Assembly: GCA_900553985.1 (NCBI GenBank)
Contig: USFW01000001.1
Span: 11,523 to 75,522 of the forward strand
Direction: 5' to 3'
DNA from: an uncultured Clostridium sp.
GTDB taxonomy: Bacteria; Bacillota; Clostridia; TANB77; CAG-508
Length of the DNA: 64,000 nucleotides
Shown: one piece after another, positions 3,111 to 59,239 of the stretch
Layout: each line of letters opens with the position of its first letter
Position numbering within the stretch: the first letter of the stretch is position 1
Position numbers and translations under genes: made by a program
Notes under the pieces: model-generated
Told to the model about the DNA's origin: nothing
Database searches by the model: none
The model's input: the letters and a program-made list of their open reading frames with translations, nothing else

Positions 3111-3160
3111 GATTTTACTGATTTTGGAGTCGTGATTTTGGGGTCGGAGACAAAAATCAT
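3111..3160. repeat. Copy 1 of the dispersed GC-rich palindromic element: 1.5 units, ctGATTTTGGagtcg + TGATTTTGGGGTCGGAGACAAAAATCAT
   Basis: Core ATGATTTTGGGGTCGGAGACAAAAATCAT is an imperfect palindrome. The same element recurs at 3341, 7463, 14411, 31092 and 59211. It is much more GC-rich than its surroundings. Confidence 0.8.
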
Positions 3161-3280
3161 TTACTTAAAATAAATATAAGAAAAGCTATTATAGGTCTTT
3201 TTAAAGGTTACTTTTACTTGTTGTATACAGAAAAATCCTATATAAGTTCAAGATAAAAGTCAATTTTTCCTACACAATAA

Positions 3281-3324
3281 AAAAACTAGAAATTTAACAT
3301 TTTAGTTAAATTTCTAGTTTTCAT
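3281..3324. terminator. Bidirectional rho-independent terminator downstream of adhesin paralogue A
   Basis: AACTAGAAATTT ... AAATTTCTAGTT perfect 12-bp stem flanked by an A-run 5' and a T-run 3'. Confidence 0.6.
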
Positions 3325-4670
3325 TATATTATAAACTTGAATGATTTTTGTCTCCGTCCCCAAAATCATTGAAAACATTTTTCTTTGGCTCCCAAAACAT
3401 GACTCCAAGGTTAGATTCCACAATTATTCTACATTACATATTTTTTTATTAAGAATATTCCTCCTGCTATTGTTACTAGTACTACTATTCCTAATCCTAC
3501 ATATGTTATTGCTTTACCTGTTTCTATTGATAATATTACTGGTGCATCATCTATATCATCTTCTCCTGGCTTTTTATTGTCTGGGGTTGAGTCTCTATCT
3601 GGTACTCCTTTGTCATTATAGTCTTTTGATATTTCTGCTATATTTGTTTTTAGTCCCATATTATCTTCTCTATTTATCCATGTTAATAACACTTCTACAT
3701 CTGCTGATTCTCCTGGTTGTAATAATGTGTTTTCTAATTTTGTTGTTGATATTATATTGTTTCCTTCATCTTTCCAATATGGATTATCTTCTGCTACAAA
3801 TTTTAACCCTTCTGGTACATAGTCTGTTATTTCTTTTACATATCCTGCTATGTCTCCTTCATTTGTTACTCTTATTGAGTATCTGAATTTTACTGTTACT
3901 TGATTTATGTCTTTTCTATATAATTCTACTTTTACTACTGGTTCTGGATCCATATCTGGTGTATGTCCTGTTTGAGTTACTGTTTGTTTTCCATCTTCTA
4001 TTACTATTGCTTCTGTTACCCATTTTCTTAATGCCAAGTCAAAATATCTTAATTTTATGTATTCTTTATCTTGGTCATCTTCTCCTTCTACCCATTTGTC
4101 TGGTGTTGAATCTTTATCTTCTACTGGATTTCCTTCTTTATCACTATCTTCTGATATTTGTGCTGAATTTATTATTACCTTATCTGATCCATTTGGTTCT
4201 ACTACTTCAAATGCTACCTCTATATCTCTATGATCTGGATTTGTTTCACTTATTTCTTCATTTTTATTAAATGCTTTTAATAAGTTTTCTCCTTCTTTTT
4301 CTTCTTGCTCTTTTGATAAGTAATCTGTTGTTATTTTTTCTGCTTCTTCTACATTTTCTGTCTCTTTTCCTTCTTTATCATACATTACCCATCTATATTT
4401 TACATTTGTTTCATTTTCTGGTAAGAATTTTAACCCATCTGGTATATCATCTGATACTAGTTGTGCATATCCATCAATATCTCCTTCGTTATATACTCTT
4501 ATTGTATAGGTTACTATATCTCCTGTTACTACATCCATTGGATCTTTTGGATGATTATATGTTATTTTGTCTTTTTCTTTATCATAACTTACTTCTGGTA
4601 TTCTTGTTGTTACATCTTTTCCATCTATATTTGTTATGAATTTTCTTAAGGCTAAGTCAAATTCTTGTAC
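3320..4670. repeat. Copy A of a ~1.35 kb near-identical direct duplication. It covers the 3' ~1.24 kb of adhesin gene A plus ~110 bp of downstream sequence.
   Basis: The nucleotide sequence is identical to 7442-8792 except for a handful of substitutions (for example 4431 and 4590-4600). The encoded C-terminal ~410 aa of the two proteins differ at only 2 residues. Confidence 0.85.
3341..3400. repeat. Copy 2 of the palindromic element (reverse orientation; variant CCGTCCCC) plus a degenerate half unit
   Basis: ATGATTTTTGTCTCCGTCCCCAAAATCAT is followed by tttggctcccaaaacat. With copy 1 it forms an inverted pair flanking ~180 bp. Confidence 0.75.
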
Positions 4671-7202
4671 TATAACTTTTTCAAAATCGTCATCATCTTC
4701 TTGTCCAGGAACATATTCTTTATTTATTTCTTCATCTTTATATGATGGTAGTTTTTCATCTGATGGTATTGTTATTTTACTTGGATCTGAATCTATATCA
4801 TCTACTTCTTTTCCGTTTGCATCAGCATCTTTAGTTATTGCAGCTATATTGGTTAATTTTTTGTTTGTTTCTGCTGTATTTTTTACTTTACAAGCTACTT
4901 GTAAATCTTTATAATCTAATTTCTCACCATCAAATGCTTTTATTAAATTTTTTCTTTCTGAATTTTCTTTAGCTTTTGATAAATAATCTGTTGTTATAGT
5001 TCTTCCGTCTTTTCCAAGTACCCATTCATATTTTTTATTTATAGCATTATCTGTTAAAAATTCTAATTCTTCTGGTAAAAAGTCTGTTACTTCTTCTACA
5101 TACCCATCTAATTGCCCTTCATTATATACTCTTATTGTATATATTATTATATCATTTTTAGCAACATAAAGTTCTTTTTTCGGATGATTATATACAGAAG
5201 TTGTATCTGTTTTATCTTTTAAATTTGTCACATCAACTTTTGGAACTCTATCATATTTTTTATCATTTACATTTGTTATAAATTTTCTTAATGATAGATC
5301 AAAGTTTTTTATTTTCTCATTTCCTACTTTTATTTTTATAGTATTTCCTTCTACCTTTACACTAGTTCCTTCTACTTGCCCTGTTTTTATTGTTGCATTT
5401 TTTAGTGTATATTTTCCATTACTATTTTGTTTTTCTACTTCTATTGTCATTGTGTCTAAAATTTTGTTATATCCTTCTGGGGCTTTTGTTTCTTTTACTT
5501 GTATTGTATCTTTTGTTGTTACATCTTCAATTTTTACTGTTCCTAAGTCTAAAATCCCATTTTCTCCTGTTCCCTTTTTAGTTGGCTCTTTTCCTGGTAA
5601 TGTTACTTCAAACTCTGCTCCTGCTAATTTTATTGATGGATCATCTTTGTCTACTTTTTCTAATTGTATTTGATAATTTCCTGTAATTTGTTCAATTCTT
5701 AATTTTTCAAAGTCATCGTCATCTTGCTCACCTTTATAGAAATAATTTGGGTCTTCTAATTCTGATTTATTTGAATTATTTCCTTTATATTCTGACATAT
5801 TATCTTTATTTACATTAGGTGCTGTTGTTGGCTCAGAATCTCTATCTGCCCCTTTTTGATTTGTTATTATTGTTCCATTTGCATCTACTTCTTCAGAAAT
5901 CCATGCTACATTTGTTAAAATTTTAGTTTCATTATTTGCTTCAACTGTACATTCAATTTCTATTGTTTCATATGCAATATTTTCTCCTGTATATGGTGCC
6001 AAATTATTGTTTTCTGTTTTAGTTATCGTTATTTTATTAGTTGCTTTATCATAATTTGCAGTATATCCTGTTGTATTTATCTTAGAATATACTAATCCTG
6101 TTGGTAATTGGTCAATTATCTTAGTTGCTCTACCTTCTATATCTCCTTCATTGTAAATTGTAAGATTATATGTAACAACATCTCCATTTTTTACTAAAAT
6201 AGGTTCTTTTCTATGTTTATATGTTGCTGTTGTTCCATTATCTAATGTAGTTTTATCTATTGAAGGATTTCTTGTATTGGTAACATTATTTCCATTTACT
6301 TTAGTTATATATTTTCTTAATGCTAAATCAAATTCCTGTGGAATTCTTTCTATATCCATTAATGGTTGTTCTTGATTATTTTTGCTTGATGCATATAATG
6401 TCAATTTTGATCTATGATTTGAATTACCTGAGTTTGCTTTTGCAGTATCAATTAAATATTTATATAATACTTCTGCTTGTTCTTGTCTTTGATGTCCAGC
6501 ACTTGCATTTGGTACTGTTCCTGTCGGATTATAATCACTTAAATTCTTATAAGTTGATCCATTTTCTGTATACCATAACCAAGCTGTATTACTATATTTA
6601 TCATATTTGTTTCCTTCTTCTCCATAATTAGTAAAATACCATATTGCGGCTTGTTGTACTGCTTTTATTTCATCATCTGTTATATCAAAATCATATGCTT
6701 CGTCATAAATTCCAGCATTATTAAGTAAAGTTGTTCTTTCTGATTGCTCAGATTGACCTGGTAAATATAATAGATCTGCCAAAGCTAATAGTTCATCATA
6801 ATGACCATTATTTACTAATCCATTTAATACTGAATTTTGTACTGCTATTTGCTGTTTGTCTTTTATCATATCAAATTTCAAGTCATATTCTGCTGTTTTC
6901 TTTGTATCACTAAATCCTACTCCTGCTTTTACACAATATACATTTACTTCAGTTGGATCTGCAAAATTAGAATTACTATATTTTACTATATTCCAAATTT
7001 TAGCTGCTGACCCTGTTACTCCATTTGTATTTGGATCTCCTATTGCATATCCTAAGTTTGGTGTTGATAAAGTTCTTAGTTCAGTTATTCCAAAATATAA
7101 TGGTGGTGACATTGTTTCTGCAATTACTGTACTAAACAATATTCCTGAAATTAAAAATAATATTAAAACTAAACTTACAATTATTAATCTACAATTTTTC
7201 AT
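3429..7202 (-). CDS. Large cell-surface adhesin, paralogue A. Domain order: signal peptide, candidate thioester (TQXA-type) domain, DUF11 module, CnaB-type domain, three further DUF11 (TIGR01451-like) modules, then a C-terminal sorting-signal-like tail (SIETG + TM + KKYVM).
   Basis: The likely true start is the ATG at 7202 (MKNCRLIIVSL...) with an AGGAGAG RBS 6 nt upstream; the ORF track extends to 7229. The mature N-terminus contains YCVKAG and IKAVQQAAIWYFTNYGEE, consistent with the Cys and TQxA(I/V)W Gln motifs of Gram-positive thioester domains. Segment YQIQLEKVDKDDPSIKLAGAEFEV...ETKAPEGYNK matches the CnaB-type consensus. The unit ...TYTIRVYNEGDIDGYAQLVSDDIPDGLKF... recurs and matches the DUF11/conserved-repeat domain. 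Each module is preceded by an acidic linker (EQDDDDFEK) and FDLALRK. Confidence 0.8.
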   Translation of the reverse strand: MKNCRLIIVSLVLILFLISGILFSTVIAETMSPPLYFGITELRTLSTPNLGYAIGDPNTNGVTGSAAKIWNIVKYSNSNFADPTEVNVYCVKAGVGFSDTKKTAEYDLKFDMIKDKQQIAVQNSVLNGLVNNGHYDELLALADLLYLPGQSEQSERTTLLNNAGIYDEAYDFDITDDEIKAVQQAAIWYFTNYGEEGNKYDKYSNTAWLWYTENGSTYKNLSDYNPTGTVPNASAGHQRQEQAEVLYKYLIDTAKANSGNSNHRSKLTLYASSKNNQEQPLMDIERIPQEFDLALRKYITKVNGNNVTNTRNPSIDKTTLDNGTTATYKHRKEPILVKNGDVVTYNLTIYNEGDIEGRATKIIDQLPTGLVYSKINTTGYTANYDKATNKITITKTENNNLAPYTGENIAYETIEIECTVEANNETKILTNVAWISEEVDANGTIITNQKGADRDSEPTTAPNVNKDNMSEYKGNNSNKSELEDPNYFYKGEQDDDDFEKLRIEQITGNYQIQLEKVDKDDPSIKLAGAEFEVTLPGKEPTKKGTGENGILDLGTVKIEDVTTKDTIQVKETKAPEGYNKILDTMTIEVEKQNSNGKYTLKNATIKTGQVEGTSVKVEGNTIKIKVGNEKIKNFDLSLRKFITNVNDKKYDRVPKVDVTNLKDKTDTTSVYNHPKKELYVAKNDIIIYTIRVYNEGQLDGYVEEVTDFLPEELEFLTDNAINKKYEWVLGKDGRTITTDYLSKAKENSERKNLIKAFDGEKLDYKDLQVACKVKNTAETNKKLTNIAAITKDADANGKEVDDIDSDPSKITIPSDEKLPSYKDEEINKEYVPGQEDDDDFEKVIVQEFDLALRKFITNIDGKDVTTRIPEVSYDKEKDKITYNHPKDPMDVVTGDIVTYTIRVYNEGDIDGYAQLVSDDIPDGLKFLPENETNVKYRWVMYDKEGKETENVEEAEKITTDYLSKEQEEKEGENLLKAFNKNEEISETNPDHRDIEVAFEVVEPNGSDKVIINSAQISEDSDKEGNPVEDKDSTPDKWVEGEDDQDKEYIKLRYFDLALRKWVTEAIVIEDGKQTVTQTGHTPDMDPEPVVKVELYRKDINQVTVKFRYSIRVTNEGDIAGYVKEITDYVPEGLKFVAEDNPYWKDEGNNIISTTKLENTLLQPGESADVEVLLTWINREDNMGLKTNIAEISKDYNDKGVPDRDSTPDNKKPGEDDIDDAPVILSIETGKAITYVGLGIVVLVTIAGGIFLIKKYVM

Positions 7203-7402
7203 ACTAATCTCTCCTATATAATATACCATATATATTATACCTTATTTTTGCATATTTTTCAATGCTATCCTCTATAATTGTCAGCATTTACAATTATTAT
7301 AGGATTTTTTTCTTAGGGATTTTTAATTTAAAACCTTTTTTACTTTTTTATTACAAAAATTTTTTGATAATAATTTTATAATTAGAAATTAAAACAAATA
7401 TA

Positions 7403-7446
7403 AAAACCAGAAATTCAGCTTTTTAAGTTGAATTTCTGGTTTTCAT
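7403..7446. terminator. Rho-independent terminator downstream of adhesin paralogue B
   Basis: ACCAGAAATTCAGC ... GTTGAATTTCTGGT is a 14-bp stem with one mismatch, followed by a T-run. It sits at the same position as the terminator after paralogue A. Confidence 0.6.
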
Positions 7447-8792
7447 TATATTATAAACTTGAATGATTTTTGTCTCCGTCCCCAAAATCATTGAAAACAT
7501 TTTTCTTTGGCTCCCAAAACATGACTCCAAGGTTAGATTCCACAATTATTCTACATTACATATTTTTTTATTAAGAATATTCCTCCTGCTATTGTTACTA
7601 GTACTACTATTCCTAATCCTACATATGTTATTGCTTTACCTGTTTCTATTGATAATATTACTGGTGCATCATCTATATCATCTTCTCCTGGCTTTTTATT
7701 GTCTGGGGTTGAGTCTCTATCTGGTACTCCTTTGTCATTATAGTCTTTTGATATTTCTGCTATATTTGTTTTTAGTCCCATATTATCTTCTCTATTTATC
7801 CATGTTAATAACACTTCTACATCTGCTGATTCTCCTGGTTGTAATAATGTGTTTTCTAATTTTGTTGTTGATATTATATTGTTTCCTTCATCTTTCCAAT
7901 ATGGATTATCTTCTGCTACAAATTTTAACCCTTCTGGTACATAGTCTGTTATTTCTTTTACATATCCTGCTATGTCTCCTTCATTTGTTACTCTTATTGA
8001 GTATCTGAATTTTACTGTTACTTGATTTATGTCTTTTCTATATAATTCTACTTTTACTACTGGTTCTGGATCCATATCTGGTGTATGTCCTGTTTGAGTT
8101 ACTGTTTGTTTTCCATCTTCTATTACTATTGCTTCTGTTACCCATTTTCTTAATGCCAAGTCAAAATATCTTAATTTTATGTATTCTTTATCTTGGTCAT
8201 CTTCTCCTTCTACCCATTTGTCTGGTGTTGAATCTTTATCTTCTACTGGATTTCCTTCTTTATCACTATCTTCTGATATTTGTGCTGAATTTATTATTAC
8301 CTTATCTGATCCATTTGGTTCTACTACTTCAAATGCTACCTCTATATCTCTATGATCTGGATTTGTTTCACTTATTTCTTCATTTTTATTAAATGCTTTT
8401 AATAAGTTTTCTCCTTCTTTTTCTTCTTGCTCTTTTGATAAGTAATCTGTTGTTATTTTTTCTGCTTCTTCTACATTTTCTGTCTCTTTTCCTTCTTTAT
8501 CATACATTACCCATCTATATTTTACATTTGTTTCATTTTCTGGTAAGAATTTTAATCCATCTGGTATATCGTCTGATACTAGTTGCGCATATCCATCAAT
8601 ATCTCCTTCGTTATATACTCTTATTGTATATGTTACTATATCTCCTGTTACTACATCCATTGGGTCTTTTGGATGATTATATGTTATTTTATCTTTTTCT
8701 TTATCATAACTTGCTTCAGGCACTCTTGTTGTTACATCTTTTCCATCTATATTTGTTATGAATTTTCTTAATGCTAAATCAAATTCTTGTAA
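7442..8792. repeat. Copy B of the ~1.35 kb near-identical direct duplication (3' end of adhesin gene B plus downstream sequence)
   Basis: See 3320-4670. The offset between the copies is 4122 bp. Confidence 0.85.
7463..7522. repeat. Copy 3 of the palindromic element (lies within the duplicated block; identical to copy 2)
   Basis: ATGATTTTTGTCTCCGTCCCCAAAATCAT + degenerate half unit. Confidence 0.75.
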
Positions 8793-11018
8793 CATTATAT
8801 TGTCATAATCTTCATCATCTTCATATTTTACCCATTCTTCTGGTTTTGAATCTCTATCCTCTACTGGATTTCCTTCACTATCTGAGTCGTCTGTAATTGC
8901 TGCTTCATTTCTTATAATACCAATACCTGGGTCTGTTGCAACAACTTTTAATATTACTGAAACTTCTCTGTAATCTGGATTTCTATTATCTTTTTCATCA
9001 CTATATGGTTTAGATGAATCAAACGCTTTTATTAAATTTGCTCCTTTAGTTGTTATTTCTTCTCCTTTTCCTTTAGCTAAATAGTCTGTCGTAATTTTAG
9101 AAGAGTCTCCTTTAACATATGTCCATCCCATTTTTGTATTATATTCTACTGCTGCTAATTCCTCTTTATCAGTTATAGGATTCATATCTTTATCAATAGT
9201 TGCTCCTAAGAATTCTAATCCTTCTGGAATATCTTCTGTTATTTGAGAAGCATATCCATCAATTTCTCCTTCATTATATATTCTTAAAGTATATTTTACT
9301 AAATCACCTGTTTTTACAGAAACTGGTTCTTTATTTAATTGGTAATCTGCTGTTGTTGCAGTTCCATTTGCTAATTTAGTTATATCTACACCTTGTATTC
9401 TTTCTTTTACTTTCTTGTCATTTACTTCTACTATTCTTTTAACAAGTTTTAAATCAAAATCTTTCTTTTCTATTATTGTTTCTTTTTTTACTATTAGTTT
9501 CTCAAAGTCATCATCATCTTGCTCACCCTTGTAAAAATAATTTGAATCAGCTAATTCTGTTTTATTTTGAGAGCTACCTTTATAATTGTCCATATTATCT
9601 TTATTTACATTTGGAATTGTTGCAGGTTCTGAATCTCTATCTTTTCCAACTTGATTTGTAATTATTACATCATTTGCATCTACTTCTTCTGCTATATATG
9701 CTACATTTGTTAAAATTTTATCTTTTTCATCACTTGTAACCACTGCTTCTATTTCAATAGTTTCTGAATCTATTTTTCCTTTAGTATATGCTTTTAAGTT
9801 TTGTCTATTATCTTGTTTCTTTGTAAGTGTCAATGTATTTGTTTCTTCGTTATAGTCTACCTCATAACCTTGTGTATTTATTTTTGAATATTTTAACCCT
9901 GTTGGTAATTGATCAACTATTTTTGTTGCTCTTCCATCAACTTCACCTTCATTATATATAGTCAAATTATATGTAACAACTGTATCTTTTTTTACTTCTA
10001 TCGGATCTTTTCTGTGTTTATATGTTGCTGTTGTTCCATCTTCTAAAGTTTTTTCATCTATAACTGGTACTCTAGAACTTGTAACATTTACTCCATTTAT
10101 TTTTGTTATATATTTTCTTAAGGCTAAATCAAATTCTTGAGCTTGTCTTTCTATTTCCATTAATGGCTGCTCTTGATTGTTTTTACTTGATGCATATGAT
10201 GTTAATTGTGTTTTATAATTTCCATTTGGATCTGTATAATTATTAGCATTTTTATTTGCTGTATCTATTAAATATTTATATAATAATTCTGCTTGTTGTT
10301 GTTTTTGGAAACCTGCACTAGCATTTGGTACTGTATTTGTTGGATTATATTCACTAAAATTTTTATATGTGCTTCCATCTTCTGTATACCATAGCCAAGA
10401 TGTATTATCATATTTATCATATTTATTATTTTCTTCTCCATAATTAGTAAAATACCACATTGCTGCTTGTTGAATTGCTTTTATTTCATCATCTGATAAT
10501 TCAAATCCCCAAGCTTCTTTATATATTCCTGCATTTTCTAATAAAGCATTTTTTTCTGCTTCTGTTGAAACTCCTGGTAAATATACTAAATCAGCAAGTG
10601 CTAAAAGATTATTATAATGTCCACCATTGACAAGTTTATTTAATATATCATTTTGTTTTGCTATTTCCTCTCTTTCTGTATACATATCAAAACTTAAATT
10701 ATATTCTGCATTTTTCTTGACATCACTAAATCCAACTCCAGCTTTTACACAATATACGTTTACTTCTTTAGGATCATTAAAGTTACTGCTATTGTATTGA
10801 ACTATATTCCAAATTTTAGCTGCTGATCCAGTTACACCATTTGAGTTTGGATCTCCTATTGCATATCCTAAATTTGGTGTTGATAGTGTCCTTAATTCTG
10901 TTATTCCAAAATACAATGGTGGATTAAGTGTCATTGCTTTAGCTATATTAGGTAATAACATTAGTACTACTGTTATTAATGTTGATAAACTTGCTAATAA
11001 TACTCTTTTTAATTTCAT
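7551..11018 (-). CDS. Large cell-surface adhesin, paralogue B. Domain order: signal peptide, candidate thioester domain, four DUF11 modules, then the same SIETG sorting-signal-like C-terminus. It lacks the CnaB-type insert of paralogue A.
   Basis: The start at 11018 has an AAGGAG RBS 8 nt upstream. The signal peptide is MKLKRVLLASLSTLITVVLMLLPNIAKA. Motifs YCVKAGVGF and IKAIQQAAMWYFTNYGEE are present. The N-terminal ~470 aa are ~75% identical to paralogue A and the C-terminal ~410 aa are near-identical. Confidence 0.8.
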   Translation of the reverse strand: MKLKRVLLASLSTLITVVLMLLPNIAKAMTLNPPLYFGITELRTLSTPNLGYAIGDPNSNGVTGSAAKIWNIVQYNSSNFNDPKEVNVYCVKAGVGFSDVKKNAEYNLSFDMYTEREEIAKQNDILNKLVNGGHYNNLLALADLVYLPGVSTEAEKNALLENAGIYKEAWGFELSDDEIKAIQQAAMWYFTNYGEENNKYDKYDNTSWLWYTEDGSTYKNFSEYNPTNTVPNASAGFQKQQQAELLYKYLIDTANKNANNYTDPNGNYKTQLTSYASSKNNQEQPLMEIERQAQEFDLALRKYITKINGVNVTSSRVPVIDEKTLEDGTTATYKHRKDPIEVKKDTVVTYNLTIYNEGEVDGRATKIVDQLPTGLKYSKINTQGYEVDYNEETNTLTLTKKQDNRQNLKAYTKGKIDSETIEIEAVVTSDEKDKILTNVAYIAEEVDANDVIITNQVGKDRDSEPATIPNVNKDNMDNYKGSSQNKTELADSNYFYKGEQDDDDFEKLIVKKETIIEKKDFDLKLVKRIVEVNDKKVKERIQGVDITKLANGTATTADYQLNKEPVSVKTGDLVKYTLRIYNEGEIDGYASQITEDIPEGLEFLGATIDKDMNPITDKEELAAVEYNTKMGWTYVKGDSSKITTDYLAKGKGEEITTKGANLIKAFDSSKPYSDEKDNRNPDYREVSVILKVVATDPGIGIIRNEAAITDDSDSEGNPVEDRDSKPEEWVKYEDDEDYDNIMLQEFDLALRKFITNIDGKDVTTRVPEASYDKEKDKITYNHPKDPMDVVTGDIVTYTIRVYNEGDIDGYAQLVSDDIPDGLKFLPENETNVKYRWVMYDKEGKETENVEEAEKITTDYLSKEQEEKEGENLLKAFNKNEEISETNPDHRDIEVAFEVVEPNGSDKVIINSAQISEDSDKEGNPVEDKDSTPDKWVEGEDDQDKEYIKLRYFDLALRKWVTEAIVIEDGKQTVTQTGHTPDMDPEPVVKVELYRKDINQVTVKFRYSIRVTNEGDIAGYVKEITDYVPEGLKFVAEDNPYWKDEGNNIISTTKLENTLLQPGESADVEVLLTWINREDNMGLKTNIAEISKDYNDKGVPDRDSTPDNKKPGEDDIDDAPVILSIETGKAITYVGLGIVVLVTIAGGIFLIKKYVM

Positions 11019-12977: not shown

Positions 12978-13004
12978 TTCTCGAGTTCACCTCCTCTCAA
13001 GTTT

Positions 13005-13280: not shown

Positions 13281-14339
13281 CTAATTTTTGTTAATCTCTT
13301 CTTTATCTCTTTGTTTTTCAAATTCTTCTATCATTTTATCAACAGCTTTATTTTCCACAAATTTTTCTGCTTGTATTAATGTGTATTCAAATAATAAACT
13401 ATCACTACTTCCATGTGCTTTAACAACTGGTTTTTTTACACCTAAAAATAAAGCTCCACCATATGATTTGTAATCCATAACCTTGCTAAATCTTTTAATT
13501 GCTGGAAGTGCTGGTATTGACAATATTTTTGATAATAAATTTTTGGTAAAACTCTCTGTTAATGATCTCTTTACAAACTTTCCTAATCCTTCTGTAGTCT
13601 TTAAAAACACATTTCCTGTAAATCCATCTGTTACTATTGCATTTATTTTTCCTGAAAAAGCATCTCTTCCTTCCACATTTCCTACAAAATTTATATCTAA
13701 TTCTTCTGATTTTTCTTTTAGCAATTTATAACTTTCTTTTACTAATTCATTACCTTTAGTTTCTTCTGTTCCTATGTTTAATAATCCTATTGTAGGTTTT
13801 TCAATTCCATATGTATTCTTTAAATATATGCTTGACATTTGTGCAAATTGTAAAAGGTTTATTGGCTTACAATTTGTATTAGAACCTGCATCTATTAATA
13901 ATAATTGACTTTTATATGCTGGTAATATTCCTGCTAATGCTGGTCTATCTATTCCTTTTATTCTTCCTACTAAAAGTGTTGCCCCTGTCAATAAAGCTCC
14001 TGAATTTCCTGCTGAAATAAAAACATCTCCTTCTCCTTCTTTAAGCATTTTAAATCCCACAACCATTGAAGAATCTTTTTTATGCTTAATTGCAACAGTT
14101 GGAGTATCTGTCATCTCTATTGTTTCAGTAGCATTTCTTATCTTTAACCTATCAGAAACTTCTTCTATTTCTTTCCCTGTAAATTCTTTTATTTTCTTCC
14201 TAATTATTTCTTCTTTACCAATTAAAATAACTTCTGCCTTTATTTTATTTATAGCATTTAATGCCCCTTTGATATTTGCATCAGGTGCATTATCTCCCCC
14301 CATAGCATCTAATAAAATTTTCACTTTAAATTCCTCCAT
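13281..14339 (-). CDS. plsX: Phosphate acyltransferase PlsX
   Basis: N-terminal KILLDAMGGDNAPD motif and full-length similarity to PlsX. Confidence 0.9.
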   Translation of the reverse strand: MEEFKVKILLDAMGGDNAPDANIKGALNAINKIKAEVILIGKEEIIRKKIKEFTGKEIEEVSDRLKIRNATETIEMTDTPTVAIKHKKDSSMVVGFKMLKEGEGDVFISAGNSGALLTGATLLVGRIKGIDRPALAGILPAYKSQLLLIDAGSNTNCKPINLLQFAQMSSIYLKNTYGIEKPTIGLLNIGTEETKGNELVKESYKLLKEKSEELDINFVGNVEGRDAFSGKINAIVTDGFTGNVFLKTTEGLGKFVKRSLTESFTKNLLSKILSIPALPAIKRFSKVMDYKSYGGALFLGVKKPVVKAHGSSDSLLFEYTLIQAEKFVENKAVDKMIEEFEKQRDKEEINKN

Positions 14340-14410: not shown

Positions 14411-14496
14411 ATGATTTTGGGGTCGGAGACAAAAATCATTTTCAACTACTCACATGATTTTTGTCTCCGACCCCAAAATCACGACCCCAAAATCAT
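14411..14496. repeat. Copy 4 of the palindromic element: two full units in inverted orientation separated by a 14-nt spacer, plus an extra half unit. Predicted to form a ~29-bp-stem hairpin.
   Basis: ATGATTTTGGGGTCGGAGACAAAAATCAT - tttcaactactcac - ATGATTTTTGTCTCCGACCCCAAAATCA - cgaccccaaaatcat. It lies between plsX and the tuf terminator. Confidence 0.8.
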
Positions 14497-14500
14497 TAAA

Positions 14501-14550
14501 ATCAAAAAAATAGCAAGATTGCTACAAATAATGTAACTCTTGCTATTTTT
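14501..14550 (-). terminator. Rho-independent terminator of tuf
   Basis: ATAGCAAG ... CTTGCTAT stem followed by U7 on the minus strand, immediately downstream of the tuf stop. Confidence 0.65.
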
Positions 14551-14557: not shown

Positions 14558-15760
14558 TTATTCAATTATATCAGCTACAACTCCTGAACCAACTGTTCTA
14601 CCACCTTCACGAATAGCGAATCTTAATCCTTTTTCGATAGCGATAGGTGTAATTAATTCGATTGTCATTGATACGTTATCTCCAGGCATAACCATTTCTG
14701 TTCCAGCAGGTAATTCGATAACACCTGTAACGTCTGTTGTTCTGAAATAGAATTGTGGTCTGTATCCGTTGAAGAATGGAGTATGTCTTCCACCTTCATC
14801 TTTTGTTAAAACGTATACTTCTGATGTGAATTTTGTATGTGGATTTATTGATCCTGGTTTACATAGAACTTGACCTCTTTCGATGTCTTTTCTATCTACA
14901 CCTCTTAATAATGCTCCTATATTATCTCCAGCTTCAGCTTGGTCTAATAATTTTCTGAACATTTCTACACCTGTAACAACAGTTTTTCTTCTTTCTGATG
15001 TAAGACCGATGATTTCAACTTCATCTTGTAATTTAACTTCTCCTCTTTCTACTCTACCTGTTGCAACTGTTCCACGTCCTGTAATTGTGAATACGTCTTC
15101 AACTGGCATTAAGAATGGTTGGTCAATTGGTCTTTCTGGTGTTGGTATATAACTATCAACATATTCCATTAATTCTTTCATTGGTTTGTAAACTTCGTCA
15201 TCTGGATTTGTTGATGTACTTTCTAATACTTGTAATGAAGATCCTTTTACTACTGGAATATCATCTCCTGGGAAACCATATTCTGATAATAAGTCTCTAA
15301 CTTCCATTTCAACTAATTCTAATAATTCTGGGTCATCAACCATATCACATTTGTTTAAGTAAACAACAATATATTTAACTCCAACTTGTCTAGCAAGTAA
15401 GATGTGTTCTCTTGTTTGAGGCATTGGACCATCAGCTGCTGAAACAACTAATATAGCTCCATCCATTTGAGCAGCACCTGTAATCATGTTTTTAACATAG
15501 TCAGCATGTCCTGGACAGTCAACGTGTGCATAGTGTCTGTTGTCTGTTTCATATTCAACGTGAGCTGTGTTAATTGTGATTCCTCTTTCTCTTTCTTCTG
15601 GTGCTCCATCGATTGCATCATATGCTTCGAATTTAGCTTTTCCTAATAATGATAAGTATTTAGTAATAGCTGCTGTTGTTGTTGTTTTACCATGGTCAAC
15701 GTGTCCGATTGTACCGATGTTAACGTGTGGCTTTGTTCTTTCAAATTTTGCTTTTGCCAT
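14558..15760 (-). CDS. tuf: Elongation factor Tu
   Basis: [17 protein letters not shown] and NKCD GTPase motifs; full-length EF-Tu. Confidence 0.97.
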
Positions 15761-31091: not shown

Positions 31092-31135
31092 TATCTCCGA
31101 CCCCAAAATCATCCGATCACCCAAATCACCAAAGT
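31092..31135. repeat. Copy 5 of the palindromic element (partial and degraded)
   Basis: TCTCCGACCCCAAAATCAT followed by the degenerate repeats CCGATCACCCAAATCACCAAAGTCACT. Confidence 0.6.
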
Positions 31136-31143: not shown

Positions 31144-31764
31144 TTATGAGAATAAATTTCCTATCCAATTAAATAAAGGATTTTCAAACAGAAATTCTCT
31201 CATCCATCCATTGGTAAATGGAATAAACCATAATATTATTCCTATTAATATCACAACAATTATAGTAAGTATTACTGCAATAATATCATTTTGTGTAATT
31301 TTTTTAAATTCATCTCTTTTAGGCTTATTTTTATATAATTCTTTTGTTAACTCTACAATTCCAGCAAAACTACCTAATTTTTTATTATATTCCTGCTCAG
31401 TATTTTTTTCATTATTTGATTTATTTGCATTATTTTTATTAAATTCACTATTATTTATATCATTCTCACTATTAGTTTGATATTCCTTGAAATTATTTCT
31501 CACACTATATTTTTTTTGATACATTTCTTCTATTTCTTTTTCAAGTTCTGTATCGTATTGTTCTTTTAAAAATTCGTCTGATAATACATCATATGCTTCA
31601 TTAATATCTTTTATTTTCTTTTCTGCATATTTTTGTTTTTCACCAGTATATAAATCCGGATGATATTTTTTAACTAATACTTTATATGCTTTTTCTATAA
31701 CTTCTTTTGATGCTCTTTTATTTACTTCTAATATATCATAATAATTTTTCATATTTATTCCCAA
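31144..31764 (-). CDS. J-domain (DnaJ-like) protein with a C-terminal transmembrane anchor
   Basis: N-terminal J domain with HPD (YYDILEVNKRASKEVIEKAYKVLVKKYHPDLY), an N/K-rich linker, and a C-terminal TM (IIAVILTIIVVILIGIILWFI). Confidence 0.75.
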   Translation of the reverse strand: MGINMKNYYDILEVNKRASKEVIEKAYKVLVKKYHPDLYTGEKQKYAEKKIKDINEAYDVLSDEFLKEQYDTELEKEIEEMYQKKYSVRNNFKEYQTNSENDINNSEFNKNNANKSNNEKNTEQEYNKKLGSFAGIVELTKELYKNKPKRDEFKKITQNDIIAVILTIIVVILIGIILWFIPFTNGWMREFLFENPLFNWIGNLFS

Positions 31765-52736: not shown

Positions 52737-53246
52737 GAAAATCACCCCTAAAAAATATTAAGCAGAATTAAATATCAACTAAATAGTTGAATACATTATT
52801 TATTTTTTAAAAGAAGTCCTACTCTCCTATAAACTTTTTTAACTTCTTAAAAAATGTCTGCTCTTACATTTTTAATTAATTAAAATATTTATATTTGATT
52901 CCTCTTCTTTTATTTTTTTACTTTTGAATAAAATTAATTTTAAAATATCTACCATAAAGTCAAGATTTTATGTTTAACTATAAAATGGCAATAAAAGAGC
53001 TGTTGAAAAATCTCTATTTTTCAACTGGCTCTAAGTTTTATTTAATTTCTAAAATATTTTCTCTTTTTATTTTTATCACCCTATTTTATAATTTTAGGTA
53101 AATATTCCATTGTATTACAAATCCTATTAATTATACAATATTTTACCATTAAAAGTCAATGTTTTTAGAAATATTTTCTTCAAAATGTAGACTTTTTTTT
53201 TCTTTTATAGTAAAATGTTTTAGAATATTATAACTTAGGAGGAAAT

Positions 53247-53819: not shown

Positions 53820-53873
53820 TTATACTTACCATTAAAAAAATAAATCTTAGTTCAGATATAGTTATTTATGAAC

Positions 53874-53918
53874 AAAAATAGTGAATTAGAATTTTTTTCT
53901 AGTTCACTATTTTCTTGT
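53874..53918. terminator. Bidirectional terminator between convergent genes
   Basis: AATAGTGAATTAGAA ... TTCTAGTTCACTATT 15-bp stem with one mismatch. Confidence 0.55.
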
Positions 53919-53992
53919 TAGATTAATATATTAATTAAAGTTAATTTGTGGTACATTTTCAACCTTATTTATAAATTAAATATTTTTTCTTT

Positions 53993-55135
53993 TTATTCCA
54001 TATTATTTTTTGGTGATTTCAATTTATTTTTATATTCAATATAATCATTTATAAGTATCTTTAATATAGCTATTACTGGTACTGCTAAGAACATTCCTAA
54101 TATTCCAAAATATGCTCCACCAACTGTTACTGCAAATAAAACTAATAATGGGCTTATTTTTAGAGATTGTCCTACTATCTTTGGATTTATGATGTTCGCA
54201 TCTATTTGTTGTAAAATTACCACTACTATTATCATCCAAATTGCTTGTGATAATCCACCTGTAATTAATGTCACTAATACAGCTATAACTGTTGCTATTA
54301 TTGCTCCTACATATGGTATCATATTGAACATTCCTATGAAAAATCCTAATAATGGTGCATATTTTACTTTCATTATTGTTAATGCTATTGTTACCAATAT
54401 ACCTACTACTATTGCATCTAAAAATTGACTTGCAATAAACTTAAAGAATATTTCATTTGAGTTGTTAAAATATTTATCTATATTCTTATATGTATTTTCC
54501 TTGAATATAGCACCTGTTAATTTTTTCAAAAATGCTATTATTTGTTTTCTCTCTGTTAAAATGTATATTGATACTATTATTGCAATAAATATATCTATTA
54601 CACTAAATACTGCACTTATTGCATTAGTTACATATCCTACTATTTGCTCTACATTAAAATATTGCTTAATATTTATATTTTGCAGACTATGTATTACATC
54701 TTGTACTATTTGACCTTTAAAAAATGAGTCTTCTGGAAGTTTATTATAATTTTCTACTGCACTTGTTATATAACCTTGTAAATTATTTAGAAAATCTGCG
54801 ATACTTCCAAATACTATTGGCATTATACAACTAAATAGTACTATAATTATTGCTAATATTATTAAATATACAGTTATTACACTTAAAGCTCTAGACCTTT
54901 TTCTTATGAATTTAATTTTTACTTTGTTAAACCATTCTTCAAATTTTCTTGCTGGCATATATAATAAATATGCTATAAATATTCCTACTATAAATGGACT
55001 AAGTACATTCATCAATCCTTTTATTCCATTCATTACACTATCATAGTTATCTAGGCCTTTGTAAACTAAAATTAGTGCAATTCCTAGTAAAAACCAGTAT
55101 ATCCATTTTGACCAGTCTTTTTTCGTGTTATTCAT
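53993..55135 (-). CDS. AI-2E family transporter (UPF0118/PerM-like permease)
   Basis: 380 aa with ~8 TM helices. The C-terminal region (GGLSQAIWMIIVVVILQQIDANIINPKIVGQSLKISPLLVLFAVTVGG) is characteristic of the family. Confidence 0.7.
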   Translation of the reverse strand: MNNTKKDWSKWIYWFLLGIALILVYKGLDNYDSVMNGIKGLMNVLSPFIVGIFIAYLLYMPARKFEEWFNKVKIKFIRKRSRALSVITVYLIILAIIIVLFSCIMPIVFGSIADFLNNLQGYITSAVENYNKLPEDSFFKGQIVQDVIHSLQNINIKQYFNVEQIVGYVTNAISAVFSVIDIFIAIIVSIYILTERKQIIAFLKKLTGAIFKENTYKNIDKYFNNSNEIFFKFIASQFLDAIVVGILVTIALTIMKVKYAPLLGFFIGMFNMIPYVGAIIATVIAVLVTLITGGLSQAIWMIIVVVILQQIDANIINPKIVGQSLKISPLLVLFAVTVGGAYFGILGMFLAVPVIAILKILINDYIEYKNKLKSPKNNME

Positions 55136-55146
55136 ACCTTTCCTCC

Positions 55147-55899
55147 TTATTTAATTAATAGACCAACTGGACAGTGATCACTACCATATATTTCTTGATA
55201 AATTTTCGCATCTTCCAATTTATCTTTCATATCTTTCGAAACTATAAAATAGTCTATTCTCCACCCTGCATTATTAGCTCTTGCATTTCTCATATATGAC
55301 CACCAACTATATTCTCCTTCTTTATCCGGATAAAAATATCTATATGTATCGATAAATCCTGCTTCTAATAATTCTGTCATTTTTTCTCTTTCTTCATCTG
55401 TAAATCCTGCATTTCTTCTGTTAGTTTTTGGATTTTTTAAGTCTATTTCCTTATGTGCAACATTTAAATCTCCACACATTATTACTGGTTTTTGTTCATT
55501 TAATCTTAATAAATATTTTCTTATTTCATCTTCCCATGTTTGTCTATAATCCAATCTTTCCAATTCTCTTTTTGAGTTAGGTGTATAATTGTTTACTAAG
55601 AAAAAATCCTCAAATTCTAATGTTATTATTCTTCCTTCTTTGTCATGTTCTTCTATTCCAATTCCATATGTTACATTTAATGGCTGAATTTTAGTAAATA
55701 TTGCTGTTCCAGAATATCCTTTCTTTTCAGCACTGTTCCAATAACTTGTATATCCATCAAAGTTCAATTCAATTTGTCCTTCTTGGCATTTTGTCTCTTG
55801 AATACAAAAAATATCAGCATCAATTTCATTAAAAAATTCTTCAAATCCTTTTGTCATACAAGCTCTAATTCCATTTACATTCCATGATATTAAATTCAT
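55147..55899 (-). CDS. xth: Exodeoxyribonuclease III (AP endonuclease, Xth family)
   Basis: MNLISWNVNGIRA N-terminus, catalytic residues (CIQETK, GDLNVAH, SDHCPV), 250 aa. Confidence 0.9.
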   Translation of the reverse strand: MNLISWNVNGIRACMTKGFEEFFNEIDADIFCIQETKCQEGQIELNFDGYTSYWNSAEKKGYSGTAIFTKIQPLNVTYGIGIEEHDKEGRIITLEFEDFFLVNNYTPNSKRELERLDYRQTWEDEIRKYLLRLNEQKPVIMCGDLNVAHKEIDLKNPKTNRRNAGFTDEEREKMTELLEAGFIDTYRYFYPDKEGEYSWWSYMRNARANNAGWRIDYFIVSKDMKDKLEDAKIYQEIYGSDHCPVGLLIK

Positions 55900-56055
55900 T
55901 TATTCGCCTCCATTTTTTTATTTTAATTCATCTTTCCATTTTTATTATTTTTTCTTTTTATTGATAAATAGAAATATAATTCAAAATTCTAAGCTTTTTT
56001 ATATATAAAAAACTGCCCATTTATCTAGGACAGTTCTATTATATATTATTTTCTC

Positions 56056-56991
56056 TTAGTTTACAACAGAAACTGGTAAATATCTTACTCCCCATTGTAA
56101 TGCTTCTGCATGTGAGCCAACAAATATATCTATTTTATTTCCAGTTATAGCTCCTCCTCTATCTTCAACAGTATAAATATGTCCACCTATATTTAATTTT
56201 GTTCCAAATGCATATTTACCTGAAGCAGCTACTGTTCTTCCTGGTGTAGCTTTTGTCCCAGATGCTGTTCTTCCTGTTGCTTTTCCACAACATTTTGAAC
56301 ATGGACAATATGCTGTTATTTTATATACTGTTCCTGATGAATTTCCTCCTGTTGTACGTGGTAAGCTTGAACCTCTTGATGTTACTGTTTTCTTTTGTAC
56401 TTGAACTATTTTATTTACCGGTTCAGTTATTACCTTTTCTGATATAACTGTTTTTTCAATTTCTACATTATTTTGATATTTAATTTTATATGTTATCTCT
56501 TTTAATCCGTCTTTTCCTTGTTGCACAACTTTATTAGTTGAATCTGCTGTTCCTGCATTATTTGTATTTTTTGTTATTGTCTCATAAGGTATTGCAACTT
56601 GTTCTACAACAATTTTTTCTGTTATTGGCGCATAACTTTCCATTAATTGATTTAATGATGTTTCTATTCCTTGTTCTGATATTTGAGCTATTTGAACTTC
56701 ATTATAAGATTTATCAGTTATTTTTATTGTTTCTCCCGCTTTTAACTCACTATCTAGCTCTGGCATTGTTTTTTGATTTTCATTTAAAACAATATTATTT
56801 TCTTCAAGGATATCTGATACTTTTGTTTTAGATGTTAATGTTGTCATTTCATATCCATTTTGTAAAACTATCTTTACATCTTTTAAATCAGTATTTACTG
56901 CTAATACAGTTATTCCTGATATAAGTATTAAAATTATGCTCACACAGATAATCTTCATTATAGAAATTGAAGCTTTTTCTTCTCTCTTCAT
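56056..56991 (-). CDS. YabE-like cell-wall protein with a TM anchor and DUF348, G5 and C-terminal 3D (MltA-like) domains
   Basis: The start is the ATG at 56991 (MKREEKAS...) with an AAGGAGG RBS; the ORF track extends to 57021. The G5 segment is KVVQQGKDGLKEITYKIKYQNNVEIEK. The 3D domain is YTVEDRGGAITGNKIDIFVGSHAEALQWG. Confidence 0.75.
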   Translation of the reverse strand: MKREEKASISIMKIICVSIILILISGITVLAVNTDLKDVKIVLQNGYEMTTLTSKTKVSDILEENNIVLNENQKTMPELDSELKAGETIKITDKSYNEVQIAQISEQGIETSLNQLMESYAPITEKIVVEQVAIPYETITKNTNNAGTADSTNKVVQQGKDGLKEITYKIKYQNNVEIEKTVISEKVITEPVNKIVQVQKKTVTSRGSSLPRTTGGNSSGTVYKITAYCPCSKCCGKATGRTASGTKATPGRTVAASGKYAFGTKLNIGGHIYTVEDRGGAITGNKIDIFVGSHAEALQWGVRYLPVSVVN

Positions 56992-57416
56992 AAAATTAAT
57001 TACCTCCTTTTGGCAACACATATATTATACTACTTTTTAAGTAATCTGTCAAATTTTGCTATTCTTTCGAGGTTTTCTACTGTCCCTAATGCTTGTACCT
57101 TTGTTGTATTTTTCCATATTTTTCATAAAAATCTTCAAGCACTTTTACTCCAATTATTTCCACATTATATTATATGCAAATAAAATTTTTTTATTACTTT
57201 ATATTACTTTTTTATTACATTTGTATTTCTATATTTAATTTTCCTTTACATTTTTAGAATAGTCCATTAATTAAATTTTATTTATTAAATTTAAACTATT
57301 TATTCTTATACAATATTTTTGTGTCCTTTTTCTGAATTTTTAATATTTTTATTGTATAAACTTTATTAATATGTTATATTTAATTGTATATAATATATTA
57401 TTAAGGAGGAATATTA

Positions 57417-57980
57417 ATGGTTTTCTTGATTATTTTAGCTGTTATCATTGTAATTGCCATAGTTTTAATAGCTTTATATAATGGATTGGTTCAAGCTAGA
57501 CTTAGAGTTGACAATGCTTGGAGTCAAATAGATGTACAATTACAAAGAAGATTTGATTTAATCCCAAACTTTATAGAAACTGTTAAAGGATATATGACAC
57601 ATGAAAAAGAAACTTTTGAAAAAATAACAGAATTAAGATCTGCTTGGTCTGATAATGCATCAGTTGCTGAAAAAGCTTCTTTAGACAACCAGTTATCTAC
57701 AACTTTAAAATCAATTATGGCTATTTCTGAAAGTTACCCTGATTTAAAAGCTAATCAAAACTTCTCTGAATTATCTGAAGAGTTAAGAAATACAGAAAAT
57801 AAAATTTCTTTTTCTAGACAATTTTATAATGATACAGTAACAACTTATAATACTAAATTAGAAGTTTTTCCTTCTAATCTAATTGCTAATATGTTTAACT
57901 TTAAACCTCGTGAATTATTTCAAACAGAAAGTAGTGAAGCTAGAAAAAATGTTAAAGTTGACTTTGGAAAAAATGCATAA
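57417..57980 (+). CDS. lemA: LemA family protein
   Basis: An N-terminal TM followed by the conserved LemA core (NGLVQARLRVDNAWSQIDVQLQRRFDLIPN). An AAGGAGG RBS precedes the start. Confidence 0.85.
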   Translation: MVFLIILAVIIVIAIVLIALYNGLVQARLRVDNAWSQIDVQLQRRFDLIPNFIETVKGYMTHEKETFEKITELRSAWSDNASVAEKASLDNQLSTTLKSIMAISESYPDLKANQNFSELSEELRNTENKISFSRQFYNDTVTTYNTKLEVFPSNLIANMFNFKPRELFQTESSEARKNVKVDFGKNA

Positions 57981-58030
57981 TTTTAAGGAAACACTCTACT
58001 CGTGTTTCCTGTTTTTATTGGAGGTAATAT

Positions 58031-58930
58031 ATGTTTGAAAGTGTTAGAAAAAATAAATTCGAATCTGGTATAATTGTAGCAATATTTATAGTAGTTATTA
58101 CACTTATTGTTTATTATATATGCCATGCATTAAATTTAGGTACGATGTCAATTGTTATTGCATTGATTTTTTCAATTGCTAGTGCCTGGGGGTCTTATTA
58201 TTACAGCGATAAAATTGTTCTTTCTGTAAATAAAGCTAGACCTGCTACAAAAGAAGAAGATTTAAAATTAGTAAATATCTTAGATGCTTTAATGGTTACT
58301 TCTGGTTTACCTGTAAAACCTAGACTTTATGTAGTTGAAGATGCTCAGCCTAATGCATTTGCTACTGGTAGAAATCCACAAAATGCAGTTATTTGTGTAA
58401 CTACTGGATTATTAGAAAAGTTAGACTATTATGAATTAGAAGGTGTTATTGCTCATGAAATGAGCCATATTAAGAATTATGACATTAGACTTAGTTGTAT
58501 AGTTTCTGTAATGGTTGGATTTATTGTTATGATTTCTGATATGTTCTCTAGAGCTTTGTTCTGGGGTGGAATTAGAGATAATGATAGTGATAGTGATAAT
58601 AGAGGGAATGCTATTTTAATGGTTATTGGTTTAGTATTTTTAATTTTATCTCCTATCTTTGGTTCTCTTATGCAACTTGCTTTATCTAGAAAAAGAGAAT
58701 TTTTAGCTGATAGTACAGCTGTTGAATTTACTCGTAATCCTGAAGGATTGATTTCTGCATTAGAGAAATTAGAAAATGACCCTAATGAATTAGAATATGC
58801 TAATAGCGCGACTGCTAATATGTATATTGTAAATCCTTTTAAAAAGAATGGGAAGAAAAAAACTACTAGCATTTGGTCTACTCATCCTAGTACTGCTGAT
58901 AGAATTGAAGCTTTGAGGAATTTGAGGTAA
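58031..58930 (+). CDS. htpX: Membrane zinc metalloprotease HtpX (M48 family)
   Basis: HEXXH (AHEMSHIKNYD), four TM segments, and the typical lemA-htpX pairing. Confidence 0.85.
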   Translation: MFESVRKNKFESGIIVAIFIVVITLIVYYICHALNLGTMSIVIALIFSIASAWGSYYYSDKIVLSVNKARPATKEEDLKLVNILDALMVTSGLPVKPRLYVVEDAQPNAFATGRNPQNAVICVTTGLLEKLDYYELEGVIAHEMSHIKNYDIRLSCIVSVMVGFIVMISDMFSRALFWGGIRDNDSDSDNRGNAILMVIGLVFLILSPIFGSLMQLALSRKREFLADSTAVEFTRNPEGLISALEKLENDPNELEYANSATANMYIVNPFKKNGKKKTTSIWSTHPSTADRIEALRNLR

Positions 58931-58996
58931 AGCAACAATATTTCAACTATTAAAATAAATTTATTTCACCTTTAATTGTTTATTATATTTATAAAA

Positions 58997-59042
58997 TTCA
59001 AACCGCTTTCACTCTATAAGTATGAAAGCGGTTTTATAATTT
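58997..59042. terminator. Bidirectional terminator between convergent htpX and tatD
   Basis: AAACCGCTTTCA ... TGAAAGCGGTTT perfect 12-bp stem followed by a T-run. Confidence 0.6.
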
Positions 59043-59210
59043 TCACCTTTTCAAATTTATGTGTACTAAGCTTAATTTCAAATGCATTCCGTGATATTTG
59101 TCAATATTATTCCGTGATATTTCGATATTTTATTCGGTTATTTTAGCATTATTTTCAAAATTCGAAAAATCTTTAACGAATTTGACATAGTGGCTCTAAA
59201 CTTGATATCG

Positions 59211-59239
59211 ATGGTTTTTGTCTCCGACCCCAAAATCAG
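59211..59239. repeat. Copy 6 of the palindromic element (single unit, ATGgTTTTTGTCTCCGACCCCAAAATCAg)
   Basis: It lies immediately 3' of the tatD stop codon. Confidence 0.7.

Follow-up and report, generated by a model that had tools for sequence, protein, structure and literature searches.

A short hairpin-forming repeat recurs between the genes of a 64,000 nt stretch of DNA from an uncultured Clostridium sp. (GenBank assembly GCA_900553985.1, contig USFW01000001.1, positions 11,523 to 75,522), the whole of which is referred to here as the window. The repeat is very probably the unit of a family of repetitive extragenic palindrome (REP)-like hairpins maintained by a TIRYT-type HUH/Y1 transposase encoded once, at a fixed chromosomal position. 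Units are dispersed through related genomes and placed outside genes, fold into a hairpin whose stem covaries, flank the transposase gene in relatives of the window and have diverged together with it; doublets have been copied, and units are gained or lost between relatives. A conspicuous repeat of this lineage is thereby explained, and a known kind of element gains a new member in uncultured low-GC gut Clostridia.

A search of the window for the 29 nt pattern ATGATTTTGGGGTCGGAGACAAAAATCAT, with a tolerance of 3 mismatches, returned six matches (3132+, 3341-, 7463-, 14411+, 14454- and 59211-), each with no more than 2 mismatches, against a chance expectation of 0.00 from 100 dinucleotide-preserving shuffles. 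The 12 nt core GGGGTCGGAGAC, with at most 1 mismatch, added one decayed copy at 31093-. Looser pattern searches of the window found no copies beyond those already listed in a first-pass annotation made from the letters of the window, and that list is therefore complete as well as real at every place it gave. The degenerate partial units said to accompany the element are likewise present: a 14 nt partial unit, TGATTTTGGGGTCG, lies in tandem next to full units (9 matches, 0.11 expected). All copies in the window fall between open reading frames (ORFs), as had been claimed, at a density of about 1 unit per 9 kb. The description of the element as far more GC-rich than its surroundings applies to the 12 nt core (75 % G+C) and not to the whole unit (38 %, with the window at ~27 %).

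Each unit consists of an AT-rich stem of 7–9 bp (TGATTTT/AAAATCA) closing a 13 nt loop that starts GGGG[T/A]CGG. Units are seen as singles, as head-to-head doublets with a variable spacer, and with tandem partial units on their 5′ side. Covariation was measured in 59 distinct units, aligned without gaps by the loop core alone and with pairs counted for a 9 bp helix. Paired cells made up 83.8 % of the total, compared with 50.0 ± 1.7 % in shuffled sets and 40–54 % when the partners were slid by 1–3 columns; 187 cells were changed on both sides (64 in shuffles), and the covariation score was 0.82 (0.215 shuffled), with the observed values reached by none of 500 shuffles. Across lineages the stem sequence varies yet stays complementary (TGATTTT/AAAATCA, CTGTTTTT/AAAAACAG, TTGTCAA/TTGACAA, GTATACA/TGTATAC, AGGACAA/TTGTCCT and GAACACTT/AAGTGTTC), and the start of the 13 nt loop, GGGGACGG, is kept. 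A conserved loop on a freely varying stem suggests recognition of the loop by its individual bases and of the stem by its shape. Beside the stem, a purine is favoured at position -1 and T at +1; no 5′ GT[AG]G (GTAG or GTGG) was present at the hairpin foot of the units, and no target-site duplication or direct repeats were found around them. A G-quadruplex formed from the TTTTGGGG tracts is a thought only.

The single unit folds weakly, as an 8 bp AT stem with its 13 nt loop at -3.5 kcal/mol as DNA. Paired copies had been proposed to form long hairpins, and the doublet at 14411/14454 does fold as DNA into a 28 bp hairpin of -31.8 kcal/mol (z = -10.5).

The motif is neither confined to the window nor scattered at random in genes, and it is shared by at least six related genomes. 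When one genome per GTDB species was scanned for an exact 18-mer, the matches listed included more than 93 stretches, nearly all from six uncultured Clostridia metagenome-assembled genomes (MAGs) of ~25 % G+C, one of which holds at least 35 exact copies. Across long stretches these six MAGs are 90–98 % identical to the window. The remaining 18-mer matches, isolated singles in unrelated and GC-richer genomes, are taken for chance. Placement was counted in 637 kb of MAG loci together with the window, with genes defined by greedy long-ORF calling. There, 140 of 154 core matches (91 %) are intergenic, while non-coding DNA makes up ~18 %, and only 1 core match lies between divergent genes. Adjacent pairs are arranged +/- (head-to-head, with the 3′ arms facing) in 34 cases and -/+ in 2. 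Relative to the nearest upstream gene, 42 single units are in the sense orientation and 13 in the other, mostly 0–60 nt past the stop codon; the single units on the G-rich strand number 42 versus 13 (76 %). Partial units accompany the 131 complete units on the 5′ (outer) side in 41 % and on the 3′ side in 15 %, and their commonest period is 14 nt.

In relatives of the window the repeats enclose a gene. At locus L021, element copies at 4288+ and 4308+ and an inverted copy at 5212- enclose an ORF of 247 aa (4447–5190) that matches the Pfam family Y1_Tnp at 47.7 bits (cutoff 23). Of the NCBIfam models, REP_Tyr_transpos scores the same protein at 76.8 bits (cutoff 80) and transpos_IS200 at 19.9 bits (cutoff 55). 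Homologues with 81–90 % identity in three further MAGs (loci L083, L066 and L040) are likewise flanked by the element. The gene order ABC-F, transposase, tex is common to these four loci and recurs where the proteins are 56–60 % identical (L094–L097), and is thus kept from 100 % down to 56 % identity; among the fetched loci, each MAG has only one copy of the transposase. A metagenome scan with an alignment of the homologues yielded 80 loci, 43 of which were examined. Inverted hairpins stand on either side of the gene in ~35 of the 43 (39–97 % identity), and at every flanked locus the G-rich strand of the upstream hairpin is the coding strand. Lineage-specific variants of the repeat also occur away from the gene, as three extra doublets in L119 and as extra copies in L094, L161, L165 and L170.

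Some loci have further features. In L083 (5690–5950) a partial second copy of the 3′ end of the transposase gene, along with a hairpin unit, adjoins the intact gene. The three extra doublets of L119 (2169–8395) have an equal start-to-start spacing of 75–76 nt and a loop, GGGGACAG, that is an exact GGGGWSAS; their spacing is more like that of REPINs (paired REP units) than is the variable spacing of the clade of the window. A more distant relative (L098/L099, 4283–5059) carries a second Y1_Tnp paralogue of 258 aa, flanked by a different inverted repeat (GGGACGTTTCCTTTTGAAGCATTTTGCTTCA..TTGGGACACATCT). A paralogue with its own inverted repeat suggests two transposase–repeat pairs in one genome.

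The HUH motif NNHAHLL and the tyrosine in YIHxNP, a class 2 signature (Y---NP), are invariant in 29–35 homologues, which also keep GYVFRDRY, the serine motif YKxSSY and an all-helical C-terminal extension of ~100 aa; the HuH-to-Y spacing is 60 aa. The C-terminal extension of TIRYTs is described as having a helix-turn-helix-like domain (Bac_DnaA_C, HTH_23 or HTH_28); here, some members show matches to HTH_26, HTH_24 and HTH_11, all of them sub-threshold, and none to Bac_DnaA_C. An AlphaFold2 model (mean pLDDT 86.6) was built for P0001, a protein 97 % identical to the L021 ORF. Its best match in the PDB is 4ER8, the E. coli TnpAREP with its REP hairpin (E 2e-7, target TM-score 0.72), followed by the IS608 and ISDra2 transposases. 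The local motif GYVFRDRY takes the place of IWQPRFWEH of 4ER8. When the L021 protein was compared by phmmer with sequences rebuilt from Additional file 5 of PMC3733652, 13 of 16 TIRYTs scored 46–104 bits, the best being Geobacter gbm_2474 (104) and Desulforudis dau_2153 (84), with three TIRYTs of the Acidobacteria group at 28–32 bits and the canonical REP-associated tyrosine transposases (RAYTs) at 18–32 bits. From its sequence, the transposase is best filed as TIRYT type, subclass 2.1 of Quentin and Group 1-like of Bertels, and not as a Group 2/3 RAYT, the subclass being set by the comparison with the Di Nocera sequences and by published criteria (HuH-to-Y spacing, YKxSSY, the C-terminal extension and lack of the GTAG-contact residues) rather than by a tree. 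Because of the phmmer scores and the GGGGWSAS-like loop, the repeat is filed as a TIRYT-associated family.

Copying and turnover are apparent when related genomes are compared. Within one genome, doublets with a common spacer of ~73 nt stand at separate sites whose flanks are unrelated (L001/L050; L046/L054a/L054b); such doublets are few, and most spacers are unique. The tuf–plsX locus has one unit in L038; in the window it has a doublet spaced by 14 nt, and in L069 a doublet spaced by 175 nt together with outer partial units. A unit of L011 and L073 is absent from the window at ~35000, and the outer arrays of partial units differ at orthologous loci (L050 versus L023). The units mark assembly breaks and sites at which related genomes differ by insertions, deletions and rearrangements.

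Compared with the window at 58931–59215, the relative L086 has ~2 kb of extra DNA (348–2317), which holds a small XRE-type helix-turn-helix gene and a gene for a 447 aa protein whose N-terminus is prepilin-like. A hairpin doublet (370+/422-) borders this DNA at one end and a single unit near 2300 borders it at the other; the repeats here may mark an insertion/deletion hotspot.

By analogy with E. coli TnpAREP and with the IS608 and ISDra2 TnpA proteins, the enzyme would bind the hairpin folded by single-stranded DNA, probably that of the lagging-strand template. It would then read the conserved loop, cut nearby by means of its tyrosine and rejoin the DNA, so that units are copied or moved. With negative GC skew throughout and a majority of minus-strand genes, the window belongs to a single replichore in which the G-rich minus strand is the leading one. 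Since the plus strand of the window is C-rich throughout, the strand carrying the G-loop of 76 % of single units is the lagging-strand template. This strand bias fits a replication-coupled single-strand model and is inseparable from the sense-orientation bias. Partial units end after GGGGTCG or after GAGAC, and, as a speculation, their arrays might stem from aberrant cut-and-join events or from slippage. Effects on transcripts, as 3′ stem loops, would be secondary and are a proposed role only. The terminator, mRNA-stabilizer and recombination-hotspot roles raised by the first-pass annotation are compatible with the position and orientation of the units, although the single hairpin is weak, and real terminators are found beside the units and not inside them.

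Chances are about even that an enzyme of TIRYT/subclass 2.1 (Group 1-type) keeps a dense, co-evolving, REPIN-like population across a broad radiation of gut Clostridia, recognizing a 13 nt loop on a covarying stem instead of a GTAG foot. If so, the ‘nested replicator’ idea developed for REPINs and RAYTs would extend beyond Group 2/3 RAYTs and beyond the Proteobacteria, and a second mode of DNA recognition would be present in this enzyme family.

Several observations weigh against attributing the repeats to such a transposase. The score of the L021 protein with REP_Tyr_transpos of NCBIfam, 76.8 bits, falls just below the cutoff of 80. No transposase homologue was found by tblastn in the 64 kb window, and the link between repeat and transposase hence rests on relatives that are 90–98 % identical. 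A few homologue loci (L110, L114, L139) have no flanking repeat. The spacers of the doublets range from 14 to ~240 nt and are mostly locus-specific, compared with the narrower spacing of classical REPINs. In the alignment with 4ER8, the residues through which the E. coli enzyme contacts GTAG (W94, Q95, E100, H101 and R104) are replaced by F, R, C, Q and K; given these replacements and the lack of a GT[AG]G foot, the mode of recognition is not transferable from the solved complex. Additionally, the counts of placement and orientation include orthologous and overlapping stretches and are hence not fully independent.

The same data bear on three other explanations. The Y1 gene with its inverted ends could be an autonomous insertion sequence (IS) resembling IS200/IS605, with the short units as non-autonomous derivatives akin to palindrome-associated transposable elements (PATEs) or miniature inverted-repeat transposable elements (MITEs), the whole being selfish and not a domesticated RAYT or TIRYT. 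The inverted hairpin ends that bound the gene, the partial duplication of its 3′ end with a unit in L083 and the match of the fold to the IS608 and ISDra2 transposases are all in keeping with this. It is nonetheless improbable, given the constant position of the gene between ABC-F and tex over proteins 56–100 % identical, its single copy per MAG among the fetched loci, the presence of the Y---NP signature of class 2, and a score with the IS200 model of 19.9 bits versus 76.8 with REP_Tyr_transpos. Nor were copies found in plasmid or phage collections, where blastn had no match among 72,556 plasmid and 50,697 phage records. A phage or plasmid origin of the repeat was also considered and rejected; the lone match in IMG/VR is a chance 18-mer in GC-rich coding DNA without arms. 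Alternatively, the units could be cis elements selected by the host, such as 3′ mRNA stem loops, terminators or sites for nucleoid or regulatory proteins, with their proximity to the Y1 gene incidental. Single units do lie mostly 0–60 nt past stop codons and in the sense orientation (42 versus 13), they are nearly absent from divergent promoter regions, and the doublet hairpins are very stable. However, the single hairpin, at -3.5 kcal/mol as DNA, is weak and without a T-run, and real terminators adjoin the units. The stems differ by lineage in step with the copies flanking the transposase of each lineage, and are therefore not what a shared host factor predicts. Copies also vary at one locus between close relatives, and no Rfam family matches them, which together leave this explanation very unlikely.

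The first-pass annotation had suggested either a small repeat family in the style of REP, BOX or RUP, or the remnant of a MITE. The REP-style part stands, in that the units are genome-wide and extragenic, form a covarying hairpin and flank a Y1 gene; a MITE of the DDE type does not. The BOX and RUP elements are streptococcal, BOX being built of boxA, boxB and boxC modules and RUP having ends related to IS630-Spn1, and the architecture of a 29 nt hairpin with a Y1 gene is unlike them. That the pairs are MITE remnants of an IS with a DDE transposase, the 29-mers being its terminal inverted repeats, is scarcely credible. Head-to-head pairs with a short interior do resemble MITEs, and some interiors are common to several loci, but most interiors are unrelated and vary from 14 to 240 nt, and there is no target-site duplication and no conserved flank except the purine at -1 and the T at +1. 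The Y1 transposase is the only gene found bounded by the repeats, and no IS with these ends was found in the loci; moreover, both arms of a pair are covarying hairpins in their own right, as is typical of single-strand transposon ends. A MITE with a conserved interior was rejected as well, most interiors being mutually unrelated. Other candidates were also set aside: a coding repeat, since the partial units recur with a period, 14 nt, that three does not divide and no unit falls inside an ORF, and an invertible promoter switch, against which spacers down to 14 nt and the link to a transposase argue. ARAGORN found no tRNA or tmRNA. Rfam, to which the annotation had also pointed, gave 0 matches for the whole window at gathering thresholds, and at E <= 1 only generic hairpin or miRNA-precursor matches far below threshold. 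A text search of the literature for the motif returned unrelated primers only.

Among known systems, the TIRYT-type reading is best compared with the ‘TIRtrons’, in which inverted repeats, many of them with GGGGWSAS, enclose RAYT-like TIRYT genes; some of the repeats form moderately abundant families of singles, dimers and clusters (Di Nocera et al. 2013, PMC3733652). The present system is alike in its RAYT-like but longer transposase, in the sequence signatures of TIRYTs, in the inverted repeats around the gene and in a dispersed family of singles, dimers and clusters. The loop motif, GGGGTCGG or GGGGACGG, fits 7 of the 8 positions of GGGGWSAS (position 7 is G, not A), and GGGGACAG of the L119 lineage fits exactly, the comparison being made with the published motif and not base by base. 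It differs in its host, an uncultured low-GC gut Clostridia lineage, in the covarying stem loop that carries the motif in its loop, in the high density (~1 unit per 9 kb in the window) and in the arrays of partial units on the 5′ side. Quentin et al. (2018, PMC6006769) equate TIRYTs with TnpAY1 subclass 2.1, report no REP-like sequence for subclasses 2.1 and 2.3, and define canonical REPs by a 5′ GT[AG]G at the hairpin foot. According to two surveys, REPINs accompany RAYTs of Groups 2 and 3 only, and REP-like hairpins are missing from subclass 2.1 genes; the RAYT groups are as defined in Bertels 2017 (PMC5581495) and PMC6006769. For the lineage studied here, these two survey views and the TIRtron report are reconciled, as the ‘inverted repeat’ is a covarying hairpin that presents the motif in its loop and makes up a sizeable dispersed population.

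The resemblance to canonical REPs, bacterial interspersed mosaic elements (BIMEs) and their RAYTs (E. coli REP, YafM, 4ER8) lies in the many extragenic palindromes near the 3′ ends of genes, in the inverted copies around a single-copy HUH/Y1 gene (a ‘REPtron’) and in the predicted fold, which is nearest to 4ER8. Unlike them, the units have no GT[AG]G foot, the stem is AT-rich and not GC-rich, and conservation resides in the loop and not in the foot or stem; the GTAG-contact residues are not conserved, and the protein scores only 18–32 bits to canonical RAYTs. The family thus behaves like REPs and REPINs while lacking two defining features of canonical REP/RAYT systems, the GTAG foot and the GTAG-contact residues. 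With REPINs (Bertels and Rainey 2011) it shares head-to-head doublets with conserved arms, a variable spacer and a long hairpin, the recurrence of one doublet spacer at several places within a genome, and a transposase inherited vertically at a fixed locus; it differs in a far more variable spacer (14 to ~240 nt), in many single units and in a transposase outside Groups 2 and 3. The IS200/IS605 ends and their miniatures (IS608, ISDra2) likewise involve a Y1 HUH enzyme and subterminal hairpins recognized as single-stranded DNA, and the strand bias seen here is compatible with use of the lagging-strand template. In contrast to those elements, the gene here is syntenic, single-copy among the fetched loci and without tnpB, and the short units far outnumber it. 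With the origins of rolling-circle Rep proteins there is a resemblance only, a conserved loop on a covarying stem shown to an HUH enzyme; here the fold is that of a Y1 transposase and not of a Rep protein, and there is no replicon. Further members of the family may be sought by a simple rule: a short stem, a 13 nt loop starting GGGGACGG, and inverted copies around a 247 aa Y1 gene between ABC-F and tex.

The copies in the window, with their coordinates and strands, are as follows.

3111..3160, + strand: contains the complete unit GTGATTTTGGGGTCGGAGACAAAAATCAT at 3132-3160, the left arm of a wide inverted pair with 3341-3369.
3111-3118 and 3119-3132: two partial units on the 5′ (outer) side of the 3132-3160 unit.
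3341..3410, - strand: contains a complete unit of the GGGGACGG variant at 3341-3369.
3370-3410: decayed partial units on the 5′ side of the 3341-3369 unit.
7463..7532, - strand: second copy of the 3341-3410 unit, a passive passenger of a 1,430 bp duplication.
14411..14439, + strand: complete unit and exact match to the consensus, the left arm of a REPIN-like doublet.
14454..14504, - strand: complete unit at 14454-14482, the right arm of the doublet, plus a partial unit and a remnant.
14482-14495: exact 14 nt partial unit beside the right-arm unit 14454-14482, with the remnant also present.
31092..31135, - strand: decayed unit with core GGGGTCGGAGAT and its 3′ arm lost, with ~3 degenerate partial units alongside.
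59211..59239, - strand: single unit CTGATTTTGGGGTCGGAGACAAAAACCAT in the sense orientation.

The genes adjoining these copies are two DUF11/SpaA/TED surface-protein genes, plsX, tuf, and genes for a DnaJ-domain protein, an M48 peptidase and a TatD-family protein. The copy at 31092..31135 begins directly past the stop codon of the DnaJ-domain gene (31144–31764), and the one at 59211..59239 begins 2 nt past the TAG stop of the TatD-family gene (59242–60039). The copy at 3111..3160 sits upstream of a promoter-like site of the minus-strand gene 2109–3014. On the minus strand, the stop of a surface-protein gene (3429) is followed ~60 nt further on by the unit at 3341-3369 and then by a terminator hairpin (3322–3281).

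Although all six loci of the first-pass annotation hold genuine copies, they do not represent six equal ones. The segments 3272–4700 and 7394–8822 are a 1,430 bp duplication with 98 % identity, which spans the 3′ ends of two large surface-protein genes (with DUF11, SpaA and thioester domains), a terminator and one hairpin unit; as both lie within it, the copies at 3341 and 7463 are one event and not independent, and the locus at 31092–31135 is without its 3′ arm. Likewise, the inverted pairs number two and not the three loci that had been counted. The doublet at 14411/14454, with a 14 nt spacer, is located between plsX (13281–14339) and tuf (EF-Tu, 14558–15760). The 3132/3341 pair has a 180 nt spacer that contains the terminator of the upstream gene, and 27 of its 29 arm positions are complementary.

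The window also holds a conserved element of ~105 nt at 3176–3285 (+), AAGAAAAGCTAT..GGTCTTTTTAAAGGTCACTTTTACTTGTTGTATAC..CCTATATAGGGTCAAGATAAAAGTCGATTTTTCCTATACAATAAAAA, for which there was no Rfam match. It is found at 85–89 % identity in unrelated loci of related MAGs (L015, L082 and L067, and as a tandem pair in L012). Outside the window it is without flanking hairpin repeats, and its copy in L082 directly precedes a plus-strand gene. The element may represent a promoter-leader module or a small RNA.

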